DNA from: an uncultured Acidobacteriota bacterium
GTDB lineage: Bacteria; Acidobacteriota; Thermoanaerobaculia; Gp7-AA8
Length of the DNA: 64,000 bases
Reading direction: 5' to 3'
Assembly: GCA_963793695.1 (NCBI GenBank)
Contig: CAWCBB010000016.1
Span: 268,603-332,602 of the forward strand
Shown here: piece by piece, positions 8,027 through 53,831 of the stretch
Numbering within the stretch: position 1 is the first letter of the stretch
How the letters are laid out: each line of letters starts with the position of its first letter
Translations under genes and position numbers: made by a program
The notes under the pieces: generated by a model
The model's database searches: none
What the model was told of the DNA's origin: nothing
What the model saw: the letters and a program-made list of their open reading frames with translations, nothing else

Positions 8027-8112
8027 GGAGAACGGAGAACGGAGAACGCAGAACGCAGAACGCAAAACGGGGAACGGAGAAACGGGGAACGAGAACGGAG
8101 ACGGAGAACGGC
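8027..8112. repeat. Tandem heptamer array (GGAGAAC)n, right inverted arm of the cassette
   Basis: GGAGAAC/GCAGAAC/GGGGAAC units, reverse complement of the left arm; ends at the stop codon at 8113. Confidence 0.9.
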
Positions 8113-9273
8113 CTACGTCTCCTTCCTCTCCGCATGCTCGAACTCCATCCTCAGCGAGAGGAACTTGACCAGATCGCTCAGCGTGACGATCCCTTCGAGG
8201 CGTCCCTCGCGCGTGACGATGAGGCGCGAGCGGCGGCCGCGGCTCATGCGCGCCAGCGCCTCGACCGCCTCTTCGTCCGGCGAGATCGTGTTCTCGGGAG
8301 CGCACGGCTCGGCGATCGCTCCGACGGTCTGTCGGGCCCATTCCTCGGCCGGAAGGTCGCGGATCGCCTGCGTGGTCACGCAGCCGACGAGGCGGTCCTC
8401 CTCCATCACCGGGTAGAGCTTGTGGTGGTATTTGAAGACGTACGTCTCGACGAGCTCCTTGACGGAGATGACCCGCGGGACCGTGACGGGGTTCGTCGTC
8501 ATGAACGCTCGAACCGGCTCGCCCGCGAGCGTTTCGCGAATGAAGAGCTGGTGATACGAAACCTGCCCCGCGCTCCGGATGAAAAATCCGATCAGGATCC
8601 ACCAGAAGCCGATGATGAAGTGCCCCATGACGAGCGCGAGGACGCCGATCGCCATGAGAAGCATCCCGAGGACGTTTCCGGACGCGGCCGAAGCCTTCGT
8701 GGCCGAGCGAACGTTGCCCGAGCGCTTCCAGAGCCACCCGCGAAGAAGGCGGCCGCCGTCGAGCGGAAAGGCGGGAAGCATGTTGAAGAGGAAGAGCGCG
8801 CCGTTCATCCAGCCGAGGTATCCGACGAGCGTCCAGAGGGGACCGGCGAGGCCGCTGGCGCGCCCGGCGGCGCCGACGAGCAGGAGGACCACCGCGAGCG
8901 CGAGGCTCATCGCAGGGCCGGCGAGCGCCATCCTCATCTCGGCGCGCGGGTGGGGAGGTTCCTCCCGCAGATCGGCGACGCCGCCGAAGATGAAAAGCGT
9001 GATCGACCGGACCTGGAGACCGTAGCGCCGCGCGACCTTCGCATGGGCCAGCTCGTGAAGGAGGATCGAGAGGAAGAGCGCCGCCGCGCCCGCGAGGCCC
9101 ATCGACCAGTACGCGGTGTGCGAGAGCCCCGGATATGCGCCCGGAAAGGCTCCGGACGCGAGCGACCAGACGATGAGCGCGAAGAGGATCAGCCACGTCA
9201 GGTCGACGCGGACCTCAAAGCCGGCGAGGCGGAAGAGCGTGAGAGTGTTTCCGAACATACCGTGGTCGGCCAT
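8113..9273 (-). CDS. Site-2 protease (M50 zinc metalloprotease) with C-terminal CBS pair
   Basis: HELAH, NMLPAFPLDGG, CBS-like FMTTNPVTV and LEGIVTLSDL; C-terminal part of the 1528-aa shadow ORF; start 9273 or 9258. Confidence 0.92.
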   Translation of the reverse strand: MADHGMFGNTLTLFRLAGFEVRVDLTWLILFALIVWSLASGAFPGAYPGLSHTAYWSMGLAGAAALFLSILLHELAHAKVARRYGLQVRSITLFIFGGVADLREEPPHPRAEMRMALAGPAMSLALAVVLLLVGAAGRASGLAGPLWTLVGYLGWMNGALFLFNMLPAFPLDGGRLLRGWLWKRSGNVRSATKASAASGNVLGMLLMAIGVLALVMGHFIIGFWWILIGFFIRSAGQVSYHQLFIRETLAGEPVRAFMTTNPVTVPRVISVKELVETYVFKYHHKLYPVMEEDRLVGCVTTQAIRDLPAEEWARQTVGAIAEPCAPENTISPDEEAVEALARMSRGRRSRLIVTREGRLEGIVTLSDLVKFLSLRMEFEHAERKET

Positions 9274-50562: not shown

Positions 50563-51334
50563 ATGGCCGAGGATAAACGGACCACGACCCCGGAGATCGA
50601 AGCGCTCCGGAAACATCAGGAAAAAAAGCGCTCGTACACGGATCCGACGCGGGTTCTGGACAAGGCCGATCTACCAGCTCTGGGAGACGATCAACGACCT
50701 CGAACAGCTGCAGCCGGAGCAGGTGAAGCACTTCCGCGTCTCGATTTTCGGCAGCTCGCGAATCAAGAGGGGCGATCCGATCTACGACGAGGTCAAGAAG
50801 CTCAGCTACGAGCTGGCTCACCTCGGGATCGACATCGTCACCGGCGGCGGTCCGGGCCTGATGGAGGCCGCGAACTCGGGGGCGGTCGAAGGGCAGATCG
50901 ACAGCCGCTCGCGCTCGTTCGGCCTGCCGATCCATCTTCCGACCGAGGAGCAGGCGAACCCGTTCGTCGACCAGGTGTTCCGGCACCGCACCTTCTTTTC
51001 ACGCCTCCACCATTTCGTCCGCCTTTCGTCGGCCTTCATCGTGATGCCGGGCGGCATCGGCACGGGGCTGGAGACGTTCATGGTGTGGCAGCTCCTGCAG
51101 GTCAAGCACATCAAGAAACATCCGCTGATCCTCGTCGGCACCATGTGGGCCGGCCTGATCGAGTGGATGAACCTGACGATGGTCTCGCACGGGCTCGTCA
51201 GCCCGCCGGACATGGAGATCGCCAAGGTCGTCCCGTCCGGCGCGGAAGCCCTCCCGATCGTCATCGAGTCGTTCGAGCAGTTCAAGAAGGAAAAGGCGAA
51301 TGCTCAAGGAAGCGGAAATCATCGAAGCTCTTAA
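50563..51334 (+). CDS. LOG family protein; frameshift near 50665
   Basis: VSIFGSSR, TGGGPGLMEAAN.GA, EQ.NP.V, FF.R, PGGIGT..E. Confidence 0.9.
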
Positions 51335-52385
51335 GAGCGTGAAGTTCCCCGGTCTGTCCCGCGACATCGTTTCGTTCGGATTCGTGAAACACATCGAGAT
51401 CCGCGAAGGCCATGTCGACGTCCGGGTCGAGTTCCAGACGGAAAACCCGGCGATCGGGCCTCAGATCCAGAAGGAAGCCGAAGCGGCGGTCTCGAGGGTC
51501 GAGGGGGTGACGGACGTTCACGTCCACCTGGACGCGCAGACCCGGGGAGCGGGCGGCTCCACGCAGCCCGTCTCCGGCGGCCCGATCCGATCGATCGAGG
51601 GCGTCAAGTACAAGATCGCGGTCGCCTCCGGGAAGGGCGGCGTAGGAAAGTCGACCGTCGCGAACAATCTGGCCGTCGCGCTGCGGATGCAGGGGCAGAC
51701 GGTCGGCCTGCTCGACGCCGACATCTACGGTCCCTCCCAGCAGATGATGCTCGGGATCGAAGGGCGGCCGATGATCGACGAGCGGGACGAGAAGATCATC
51801 CCGATGGAGCGGCACGGCGTGAAGACGATGTCGCTCGGGCTGATCACCGACCCCGATACGCCCGTCATCTGGCGCGGCCCGATGGTCATGAAAGCCCTCG
51901 AGCAGTTCCTCGGCGACGTCCGCTGGGGCGAGCTCGACTACATGATCATCGACCTTCCTCCCGGAACCGGCGACGCGCAGCTCACGCTCACGCAGCGCGT
52001 CCCGCTCGACGGGGCGATCATCGTGACCACGCCTCAGGATGTGGCGCTCATCGACGCGCGCAAGGGCCTCGCGATGTTCCGCAAGGTCAATGTCCCCGTC
52101 CTCGGCATCGTCGAGAACATGAGCTACTTCATCTGCAACCATTGCGGGGAGCGGGAAGAGATCTTCGGCCACGGCGGCGGCCGCAAGACCGCCGAGATGC
52201 TCGGCGTGCCGTTCCTCGGAGAGATCCCGCTCGATCCGAAGGTCGTCGTCGGCGGCGACACCGGCGAGCCGATCGTCGTCTCCGAGCCCCACTCGGTCGC
52301 CGCCCACGCGTTCATCGACCTCGCGATTCACGTGAACCAGGCGATGAAACGCCGCGGCTTGCACGTCGTGCAACAGGAGCGGTAG
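51300..52385 (+). CDS. mrp: Mrp/NBP35 (ApbC) Fe-S cluster carrier ATPase
   Basis: N-terminal FeS assembly domain, SGKGGVGKST, DADIYGPS, WRGPM, DLPPGTGD, ENMSYF.C..C. Confidence 0.95.
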   Translation: MLKEAEIIEALKSVKFPGLSRDIVSFGFVKHIEIREGHVDVRVEFQTENPAIGPQIQKEAEAAVSRVEGVTDVHVHLDAQTRGAGGSTQPVSGGPIRSIEGVKYKIAVASGKGGVGKSTVANNLAVALRMQGQTVGLLDADIYGPSQQMMLGIEGRPMIDERDEKIIPMERHGVKTMSLGLITDPDTPVIWRGPMVMKALEQFLGDVRWGELDYMIIDLPPGTGDAQLTLTQRVPLDGAIIVTTPQDVALIDARKGLAMFRKVNVPVLGIVENMSYFICNHCGEREEIFGHGGGRKTAEMLGVPFLGEIPLDPKVVVGGDTGEPIVVSEPHSVAAHAFIDLAIHVNQAMKRRGLHVVQQER

Positions 52386-52401: not shown

Positions 52402-52478
52402 CAGCCCCAGCCCCCAGCCCCAGCCCCCAGCCCCAGCCCCAGCCCAGCCCCCGCCCCCGCCCCAGCCCCCAGCCCCAG
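52402..52478. repeat. Hexamer-like C-rich array (CCCCAG)n
   Basis: cagccccagcccccagccccagcccccagccccagccccagcccagcccccgcccccgccccagcccccagccccag. Confidence 0.8.
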
Positions 52479-52488
52479 ACTCTAGCCC

Positions 52489-52738
52489 CAATGGCGTTAA
52501 CTTAAGCAATGGTTCGGGCGACGACGTCATCCCGAGCGTAGCGAGGGATCGGGCGGGAGTGGTGCGCGTGACGCCGCACCAAGCAGGGCACAGGCTCGAA
52601 ATTCGCTGGCGACCCCGAAGCGAATGCCGATCCTGCTGCCCTGCTCGGGCGCCGCGTTCTTGCGCAGCCCCCGCCCAGATCCCTCGCTACGCTCGGGATG
52701 ACAGCTCCGGGGCATCTCGCCTTAAGTTAACGCCATTG
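52489..52738. mobile_element. 250-bp MITE with 18-bp perfect TIRs and 12-bp target-site duplication (IS4-family-like ends)
   Basis: TIR CAATGGCGTTAACTTAAG at 52489-52506, exact reverse complement at 52721-52738; direct repeat AGACTCTAGCCC at 52477-52488 and 52739-52750; no transposase. Confidence 0.88.
52526..52702. repeat. CGTC-type REP doublet inside the MITE
   Basis: GTCATCCCGAGCGTAGCGAGGGATC at 52526-52550 and exact reverse complement at 52678-52702. Confidence 0.88.
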
Positions 52739-52743
52739 AGACT

Positions 52744-53741
52744 CTAGCCCCTCGTTCGCCACGCGAGCGCATCCGCGATCCCCGGGTCGTTCGCGTCCGA
52801 CTCCGCAACGGGCCCATCCGCGAGGACGACCGCGTTCCGGATCATCCCCGCCCGCCTCGCGCGCTTGATCGCGCTCCTGCGGAAGACCGCCGAGAAGCTC
52901 TCCTGAGGCATCCGCAGCAGATCCGAGATCGGCGTCGAGCGATAGATCTCGCGCGCACGGAAGGCGGGATGCCCCGGCGGCGCGGCGCCGTTCCAGGGAC
53001 AGACCTCCTGGCAGATGTCGCAGCCGAAGAGGTTCCCGGCGAGGCGCTCCTTCACCGAGTCGGGGATCGGGCCGCGCTGCTCGATCGTCGCGTGGCTGAT
53101 GCAGCGCGCCGCGTCGACGAGCCTCCCGGGCAGGATCGCATCCGTCGGACATGCGTCGAGGCAGCGCGTGCACTCGCCGCAGCGGTCGGCCACTTCCATC
53201 GGATCGATGTCGAGAGGAAGCGACGTGAGGAGGAGTCCGATGAAGAAGTACGACCCGTGGTCCGGATCGATCAGCATGCCGTTCTTGCCGATCCATCCGA
53301 GGCCGGCCTGGGCGGCCAGGGATCGATCGGAGAGCGGGCCCGTGTCGACGTAGCGCCACGTCTTCGCCTCGGGGTCCGCGGCGCCGACGATCCGTTCGAA
53401 GTCGCGAAGGATCTCGTCGAGCACGCCATGGTAGTCGTCGCCGAGAGCGTAGCGCGCGATGTGACGCGCGATCGTTCCTTCCGGCGCCGCCGGGCGCTCG
53501 GGCTCGTAGGGGACGGTGATCGCAATGACGGAGCGCGCCCACGGAAACCGCGCCGACCGGGTCCTTCCGGATCGCGAGGCTCTTCCGCAGATAGCCCATC
53601 GACGCCTCGCGCCCCGAAGCGAGCCACTCCTCGAACTTCGCCACGTGCGCGTCCTCGAGCGGACCCGCGCCGATGCGCAGAACGCCGTGCGCTCGTGCGG
53701 CCTGCTCGAGAAGGGGCCAGATCGTGGATCAGGGTGGTCAT
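52744..53741 (-). CDS. queG: Epoxyqueuosine reductase; frameshifted near the N-terminus
   Basis: MGYL, IARYA.G.DYH, YVDTGP..DR..A..AGLGWIGKN..LI, CG.C..C..ACPT, C.S..TIE, FGCDICQ.VCPWN. Confidence 0.93.
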
Positions 53742-53755
53742 GGCGTGTCGTGGCG

Positions 53756-53831
53756 GTAGGGGCACCCTGCGGGCGCCCGGAACCTGCGATTCGCACCGAC
53801 CAGAGTCCGGACGGCCGCAGGCCGCCCCTAC
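53756..53831. repeat. GTAG-type REP doublet upstream of queG
   Basis: GTAGGGGCACCCTGCGGGCGCCC ... GGACGGCCGCAGGCCGCCCCTAC. Confidence 0.78.

Follow-up and report, generated by a model that had tools for sequence, protein, structure and literature searches.

The window analysed here is a 64,000-nt stretch of the genome of an uncultured soil bacterium of the Thermoanaerobaculia (Acidobacteriota) (G000:C16:268603-332602, G000 being our code for the host genome assembly). [quoted passage not shown] The exact terminal inverted repeat (TIR) of this element bounds transposase-encoding elements of 1.39-1.45 kb, and at least 22 copies with their own target duplications, of the length produced by the parent IS, occupy unrelated sites of the host genome. 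Judged from its sequence, the interior is not transposase debris and is best described as a dimer of hairpin repeats tagged CGTC or TGTC.

Anatomy of the element and its copies

The host assembly comprises 4.46 Mb in 30 contigs (67% G+C, estimated completeness 68%). A preliminary description of the window had reported perfect 18-bp TIRs, a perfect 12-bp direct repeat containing the TAG stop codon of queG and an exact 25-bp inverted pair, all of which were confirmed in the sequence. The features of the element are listed below in the coordinates of the window:

52477..52488, left copy of the target site duplication (TSD), AGACTCTAGCCC, 12 bp, exact match to 52739-52750
52489..52506 (+), left TIR, G-type, CAATGGCGTTAACTTAAG, 18 bp
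52507..52524, linker of end A, from the left TIR to the tagged hairpin, 18 nt
52525..52553 (+), left hairpin repeat, outward-facing tag CGTC, 25-nt core GTCATCCCGAGCGTAGCGAGGGATC at 52526-52550
52551..52677, core X, self-complementary centre of the hairpin-repeat doublet, 127 nt
52675..52703 (-), right hairpin repeat, inverted, 25-nt core at 52678-52702, tag TGTC (minus strand)
52704..52720, linker of end B, from the hairpin to the right TIR, 17 nt
52721..52738 (-), right TIR, exact reverse complement of the left TIR
52739..52750, right copy of the TSD, AGACTCTAGCCC, holding the queG stop (CTA on the + strand at 52744-52746)

The inner inverted repeat (52526-52553 and 52675-52702) is 28 nt long and 96% complementary, its 25-nt core being exact in both arms. 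The base preceding the left arm is a C, giving the tag CGTC, and the one preceding the right arm a T, giving TGTC. The direct-repeat program reported 13 nt for the flanking duplication, the next base, a C, doubling as the first base of the TIR; the other copies of the G-type subfamily establish the true length as 12 bp. Over its entire length, the element folds into a single hairpin (-104.5 kcal/mol vs -52.5 +/- 4.1 for shuffled sequences; z = -12.8).

The element matched 98 places in its own genome (both strands counted) and the 18-bp TIR had 50 matches at up to three mismatches. Since 22 pairs of these matches bounded short elements (250-568 bp) with duplications of their own, the arrangement seen in the window is not a product of chance. 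The bounded copies fell into two subfamilies. Those with a G at TIR position 8, as in the window, had 12-bp duplications (exact in five copies, with one or two mismatches in two others) and those with a C at this position had 10-bp duplications (seven exact, four with one mismatch). C-type targets had a central TA (e.g., ggtgTAggcc, gatcTAgggg); G-type targets were mostly small palindromes (gggcTGAcgccc, cggcgTCAgccg), and the window target agacTCTAgccc is atypical among them. The stop codon of a long open reading frame (ORF) with high GC3 lay inside the duplication in six of the 22 copies, a recurrence that is due to the target preference in a G+C-rich genome.

One check proposed in the preliminary description was whether other copies carry the repeat pair. 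Core X was present in 20 of the 22 bounded copies, and at about 41 loci of the genome overall, some with IS4 ends and some without. Core X was accompanied by another repeat, core Y, in four copies (complete in three, as a fragment in the fourth), one further copy contained core Y alone, and one was degenerate with neither core. The five closest G-type copies were 97-98% identical to the window element, and the sequences suggest a fairly recent burst of G-type copies, not necessarily current activity.

Core Y is a 175-bp G+C-rich palindromic repeat abutting one hairpin arm, found at G000:C23:5321-5495 and at some 20 other loci. It is nested complete in the enlarged MITEs C4:388788-389240, C10:89720-90171 and C27:22034-22452, as a fragment in C16:414835-415395, and as the sole cargo in C1:331924-332189. 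We also observed that the orientation of the dimer core flips relative to the two distinguishable MITE linkers (G000:C30:89966-90219 vs C4:241244-241497 and C16:148317-148569) and that it is opposite between the G-type and C-type subfamilies. A candidate composite transposon of 11.9 kb between two MITE ends (G000:C23:5271-17152) was rejected: this region shows 94.6% identity with its own reverse complement, is bounded on both sides by the same junction of flank and MITE end, and does not represent a cargo-bearing transposon. It could be a genuine large inverted duplication or else an artefact of the assembly; the junction occurs a third time at C28:54090.

Partner elements of the IS4 family

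Of the 124 genomes from the same family, 46, representing 17 of 40 genera, had the window TIR at no more than one mismatch, and the reversed 18-mer pattern used as a control gave one match across all 124. In these genomes, TIR pairs 1.32-1.42 kb apart bounded elements that contained one ORF of about 400 aa. The full-length elements, 1.39-1.42 kb long, carried the position-8 C form of the TIR (0-2 mismatches). Three such C-type elements were flanked by 10-bp duplications (ggtctgaccc, gctctgaccc and gggtcagacc). Three C-type transposases scored 212-229 bits on the NCBIfam model NF033592 “IS4 family transposase” (cut-off 115), 75-76 bits on Nterm_IS4 (PF13006) and 48-70 bits on DDE_Tnp_1 (PF01609).

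The G-type form came from metagenomes. The exact window TIR was present in 72 metagenome contigs, seven of which (L114, L118, L123, L131, L147, L155, and L173) contained complete 1.39-1.45-kb G-type elements with transposases of 330-417 aa similar in kind to the C-type ones. Three full-length G-type elements had perfect 12-bp duplications (cggctgaagccg twice, cgccttcaggcg once). The Y-x2-R-x3-E-x6-K signature is readable in the L147 transposase (LYARRWGIETAFSEVK; LYSHRWEIELGYREIK in E. coli InsG), and over 380 residues this 407-aa protein shares 29% identity with InsG (E = 7e-47). End type and duplication length are thus coupled in the same way in MITEs and full-length elements, and the partner elements, with duplications of 10 or 12 bp and 18-bp ends related to those of IS4, belong to the IS4 subgroup. 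The exact TIR and the 12-bp duplications of these transposase-encoding elements bear out the earlier proposal that the window element is a non-autonomous member of this subgroup.

The IS4 ends and 11-13-bp duplications that had been described at that stage agree with the E. coli K-12 copy of IS4, which has the ends TAATGCCRRTCAGTTAAG (one end TAATGCCAGTCAGTTAAG, the other TAATGCCGATCAGTTAAG) and the 12-bp duplication ATCTTGGTTCTG. Thirteen of the 18 end positions are shared with the MITE TIR (TAATGCCGATCAGTTAAG vs CAATGGCGTTAACTTAAG), both produce a 12-bp duplication, and the partner transposases share with the product of insG the Y-R-E-K motif and an architecture of Nterm_IS4 plus DDE_Tnp_1. 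By contrast, IS4 is 1426 bp long with its transposase, compared with 250 bp and no transposase gene in the window, and the partner elements are distant from IS4, coming from Acidobacteriota and soil metagenome lineages. They also include a sister lineage with a C at TIR position 8 and 10-bp duplications.

At the metagenome loci L114-L183, G-type IS4-family elements and MITEs were repeatedly inserted in one small palindrome, CCCGGCTGAAGCCGGG. There the 12-bp duplication corresponds to the whole stem-loop, and in some cases (L155, L173) its loop has opposite orientations in the two copies. The G-type elements at these loci would thus be an IS targeting a hairpin similar to the repetitive extragenic palindromic (REP) sequences.

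The sole PF01609 transposase of the host genome (C6:212254-213642) was rejected as the partner, having 25-bp inverted repeats of its own (GGCCGCACAGCGAGGCTGTCTCAGA). It belongs to a 1.5-kb insertion sequence (G000:C6:212187-213714; L032:1688-3215) with a 462-aa DDE_Tnp_1 transposase, which adjoins a MITE remnant with a left end at C6:211502 and no right end.

The hairpin-repeat dimer and its presence in the MITE lineage

The 25-nt hairpin had 188 matches in the host genome at up to four mismatches. Its layout, a CGTC or TGTC tag, a stem opening with A-T and then T-A, a short loop and a 3-nt tail, is found at 52525-52553. Two 96-aa single-domain GIY-YIG ORFs (G000:C1:7272-7487 and 8062-8277; PF01541, 58-60 bits) were each flanked on both sides by dimers of exactly the window hairpin, in line with the association between CGTC-tagged REPs and GIY-YIG genes named in the preliminary description. 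The only relatives of the GIY-YIG protein in the PDB were the UPF0213 proteins 1zg2 and 1ywl, and the GIY-YIG proteins had no match in NCBIfam.

This arrangement resembles that of the Ssn-related motifs (SRM), including the NTS, and of the GIY-YIG single-stranded DNA (ssDNA) nuclease SsnA (Chenal et al., 2025; PMC11893778), the publication in which the link between such repeats and GIY-YIG ssDNA nucleases was first described. The dimer-flanked GIY-YIG genes appear to have the Ssn/NTS architecture: the Neisseria NTS (CGTCATTCCCGCGMAVGCGGGAATCYRG) has the same layout of CGTCAT, stem, loop, stem and ATC, and single-domain GIY-YIG genes, of 96 aa in the host genome, have the repeat on both sides in the two systems, the nuclease being a predicted one here. 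The CGTC-tagged palindromic repeats as a class were described by Di Nocera, De Gregorio and Rocco (2013; PMC3733652). They are without a transposase of their own, movement by other transposases was proposed for them, and dimers of REPs are embedded in longer palindromes in some species (PMC3733652). The window hairpin has in common with them the CGTC/TGTC end tag, the A-T/T-A stem start, a stem of about 8-9 bp and a short loop, and its family likewise consists mostly of inverted dimers with no dedicated transposase. It differs by a tandem G.A mismatch in the stem, and by the fact that some members of the family are contained in a shell for which a transposase family is identified. From this architecture and the gene association, we assign the passenger to the CGTC-tagged/Ssn-related hairpin repeats.

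REPINs are REP doublets forming hairpins and are mobilised by RAYT transposases (IS200/IS605-like, Y1). The dimers studied here are likewise inverted doublets with a conserved spacer length that form one long hairpin and are dispersed in tens of copies. The window dimer nevertheless falls outside the REPIN/RAYT system, as its tag is CGTC/TGTC instead of GTAG and the associated gene is GIY-YIG instead of RAYT; unlike REPINs, a third of the long doublets here are inside a DDE-transposon shell.

Several other features of the hairpin family were observed. The locus G000:C1:7045-8722 (L091) carries the two near-identical GIY-YIG genes in tandem, each between 177-bp hairpin dimers, and could be read as an NTS-ssnA-NTS-like module that is itself duplicated; the hairpin encodes the last five codons (MSSRA) of each gene. 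Downstream of a third small GIY-YIG gene (C16:121794-122108; L092:495-809) lie two copies of a different hairpin variant, CGTCATCCCGAGCCGAAGGCGAGGGAA, which suggests separate nuclease-repeat pairs within one genome. Short hairpin dimers of 101-106 bp (G000:C8:4938-5040, C16:40801-40902, C16:189338-189438) have inverted arrays of the 7-nt unit GATCGTT/AACGATC on either side.

The genome contains 38 long inverted hairpin pairs (175-183 bp). An IS4 end was present on at least one side in 12 of them, and two others (C30:223298, C4:565695) are MITE remnants which kept the linkers and lost the ends, so that 14 of the 38, about a third, are in IS4-type shells or their remnants. The remaining long dimers, about 25 in number, are bare, with unrelated flanks and no flanking duplication, the homology ending at the hairpin tags. 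Their centres are far more diverse than those of MITE-borne dimers, and their ends are conserved. In the maximum likelihood tree, G-type and C-type MITE dimers formed two tight sister groups (99/93 each). Eleven of the 12 IS4-ended dimers grouped with the two remnants in a single clade of 13 (89/82), nested in a clade of 17 (95/89) that was itself placed among bare dimers, including those adjacent to GIY-YIG genes. The one IS4-ended dimer outside the 13, in a 305-bp variant element (C4:341801), branched within the 17. This topology makes a single acquisition by the MITE lineage, followed by amplification, likely. The earlier suggestion that a REP doublet had been captured from another system was thus upheld, the bare dimers being more numerous and more diverse and the MITE-borne ones forming one nested clade. 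The tree would fit either order of events, a shell formed around the dimer or a dimer that entered an empty shell.

In other genera, MITEs with these ends had many unrelated palindromic interiors, and a CGTC-type hairpin, different from that of the window, was present in one of ten (L077, in a same-family genome); the metagenome contigs L166/L174 provide a further shell that combines these ends with a different CGTC-type hairpin. Separately, full-length and miniature copies of the IS group were observed in or beside the tagged head of CGTC-type hairpins at L065, L073, L074, L082, L083, L156, and L158, the first five from genomes G074 and G082, with flanks such as ...CTGTCATCC/CAATGG. Insertion beside hairpin heads could be one route bringing a hairpin next to an IS end.

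Short shells with foreign passengers are known elsewhere. MIC231 of IS231 is a mobile insertion cassette derived from an IS4-family element. BrickBuilt is a Porphyromonas gingivalis MITE carrying a minisatellite (PMC4596501). Both are, like the window element, short, non-coding and multi-copy shells with nothing of the IS but its ends, an unrelated passenger and target duplications; the passenger in the window differs in being a dimer of a hairpin family that is dispersed in its own right and linked to GIY-YIG genes.

The queG-mrp locus and the weighing of alternatives

The element is located between the following two genes:

52744..53796 (-), queG, tRNA epoxyqueuosine(34) reductase; stop certain, start uncertain
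51300..52385 (+), Mrp/ApbC-type Fe-S cluster carrier ATPase, convergent neighbour; orthologues in relatives have FeS_assembly_P and ParA domains

The closest database proteins to QueG, from Thermoanaerobaculia, were 79-80% identical and are named tRNA epoxyqueuosine(34) reductase QueG. The start of the gene is uncertain because the proteins of relatives have 330-332 aa. The Mrp protein had no exact match on record in the look-up. As the preliminary description had stated, the end of queG is preserved: the gene ends at the same codon because the 12-bp target already held the TAG, and the tails of QueG in relatives end within a few residues of that in the window.

In the three closest relatives (those with QueG 79-80% identical), we recovered the same gene order, PHP, metallophosphoesterase, queG, convergent mrp, LOG, and SPOR. 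The IS4 TIR was absent from the queG-mrp spacer in all three, so the IS4-bounded insertion is lineage-specific; the search for an empty site in relatives, suggested at the outset, thus gave a positive answer at the level of the locus. The spacer of L187 is 19 bp long. Those of L185 (3500-3751) and L190 (3366-3601) each contain a bare hairpin dimer, starting 6 and 21 nt after the queG stop, respectively. The two dimers differ in position and core and would be independent arrivals at the same spacer between convergent genes. Of the element, only the hairpin arms were shared by the 40 nearest species genomes, and the MITE was not found in them.

A number of results weigh against an IS4-derived MITE with a passenger acquired once. 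No IS4-family partner transposase, even fragmentary, was detected in the 68%-complete host assembly, where tblastn with three partner transposases gave nothing at E <= 0.01 and a PF01609 search returned a single transposase, the one at C6:212254-213642 with different inverted repeats. The full-length IS with the same ends that the preliminary description had called for was thus found in genomes of the same family and in metagenome contigs, but not in the host itself. Current mobility is unproven because the assembly is without this transposase and only 68% complete. The likeness to full-length elements does not extend beyond the 18-bp TIR: when compared with the sub-terminal sequence of those full-length elements that were sampled, the 17-18-nt MITE linkers were no more similar than shuffled controls. 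The genome contains no identical sister copy, the best being 98% identical, which qualifies the earlier view of the insertion as a recent event: the perfect TIRs and TSD on which it was based stand, but the nearest copies are not identical and the assembly has no transposase. The hairpin also fails the published degenerate SRM pattern, HGTCWYN(0-2)YYVSBRHN(0-5)WNVSBRGN(0-2)RNCYNB, at one stem position. The pattern matched neither the element nor the related MITEs because the A of the tandem G.A stem mismatch falls on a position coded B. Finally, the empty site corresponds to the locus and not to the nucleotide, since the spacers of relatives this distant cannot be aligned, and an empty-site allele from within the species was not found.

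Among the alternatives, the one closest to our interpretation reverses the order of events: a hairpin dimer would have been inserted into an older empty shell made of two IS4 ends, and the loaded shell then amplified. We give this order an appreciable but minor probability. Bare dimers do reach new sites alone, different ones being present in the queG-mrp spacers of L185 and L190; the nesting of core Y in four enlarged MITE copies, and its presence alone in one, indicate that shells receive insertions; and the many unrelated palindromic interiors of MITEs with these ends in relatives point in the same direction. Against this, the host genome yielded no empty shell. The data do not order the events, and this alternative would lead to the same end product, with the same mechanism of spread at present, as our interpretation.

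The other two alternatives start from the hairpin itself. Located exactly between two convergent stop codons and with a very strong potential to fold, the element could have been co-opted, and kept, as a two-way terminator or as a stabiliser of mRNA 3′ ends. The hairpin dimers in the same spacer of two of the three close relatives and the six of 22 copies with a gene stop codon inside the duplication would agree with this. However, no T-run follows the hairpin, one relative has nothing but a 19-bp spacer, Rfam returned only far sub-threshold matches to plant microRNA hairpin models, and the position at a gene end is explained by the preference for TA-centred or small palindromic targets in a 67% G+C genome. 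We consider such a role improbable, and it is not needed to account for the position of the element. It is far less probable still that the element amounts to no more than a long palindromic REP dimer of the REPIN kind, unconnected to a DDE transposon, whose outer repeats would be part of the palindrome or of the target. The folding of all 250 nt into one long hairpin is what this would predict, but the 18-bp ends are identical to those of transposase-encoding 1.4-kb elements and each copy has a duplication of its own with a length fixed by the end type (12 or 10 bp), which the bare dimers lack. The shared ends and the end-type-specific duplications already contradict it.

IS4-family DDE transposases, as known from Tn5 and Tn10, act by binding to the terminal repeats and excising the element, which is then integrated where the target is cut with a stagger. 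For a MITE of this subgroup, an IS4-family transposase supplied in trans would bind both 18-bp ends and excise the element, which would then be joined to target DNA cut with a 12-bp stagger; repair of the stagger would produce the duplication AGACTCTAGCCC. The MITE lineage would have taken up one dimer once and then multiplied, the dimer being copied as a passenger of DDE transposition. The transposase may have been encoded in the third of the genome that was not assembled, or by a copy since lost.

For annotation, this stretch should be marked as an IS4-family MITE next to an undamaged queG. The element is a clean case of two nested mobility or repeat systems, an outer DDE-transposon shell and an inner CGTC/Ssn-type hairpin dimer. 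It leaves the picture of what MITEs are unchanged, precedents for shells with foreign repeats being available (BrickBuilt, PMC4596501), and is a tidy example of an already known kind of element. A broader proposal, which we make tentatively and regard as doubtful, is that dimers of CGTC/Ssn-motif hairpins are genuinely and repeatedly carried by IS4-type MITE shells. In its favour are the 14 of 38 long dimers located in such shells or their remnants, the other shells with a different CGTC-type hairpin (L077, L166/L174) and the copies of the IS group in or beside hairpin heads. If true, the question raised in 2013 of how CGTC repeats spread would find one of its answers in DDE transposition. Ssn nuclease sites would then lie inside a transposon, where cleavage of the single-stranded form could affect its transfer or stability. 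The tight coupling between one base of the TIR (G or C at position 8) and a duplication of 12 or 10 bp provides a handle on how the stagger is set in the IS4 subgroup.

The neighbourhood of the insertion has one more feature. No CAGCCC-type tract was present in the queG-mrp spacer of the closest relatives; in the window, about 14 tandem copies of CAGCCC (period 6/13) occupy positions 52402-52490, between the mrp stop and the MITE, whose target is at the edge of the tract. On the queG strand, this tract reads (GGGGCT)n and could form a G-quadruplex.

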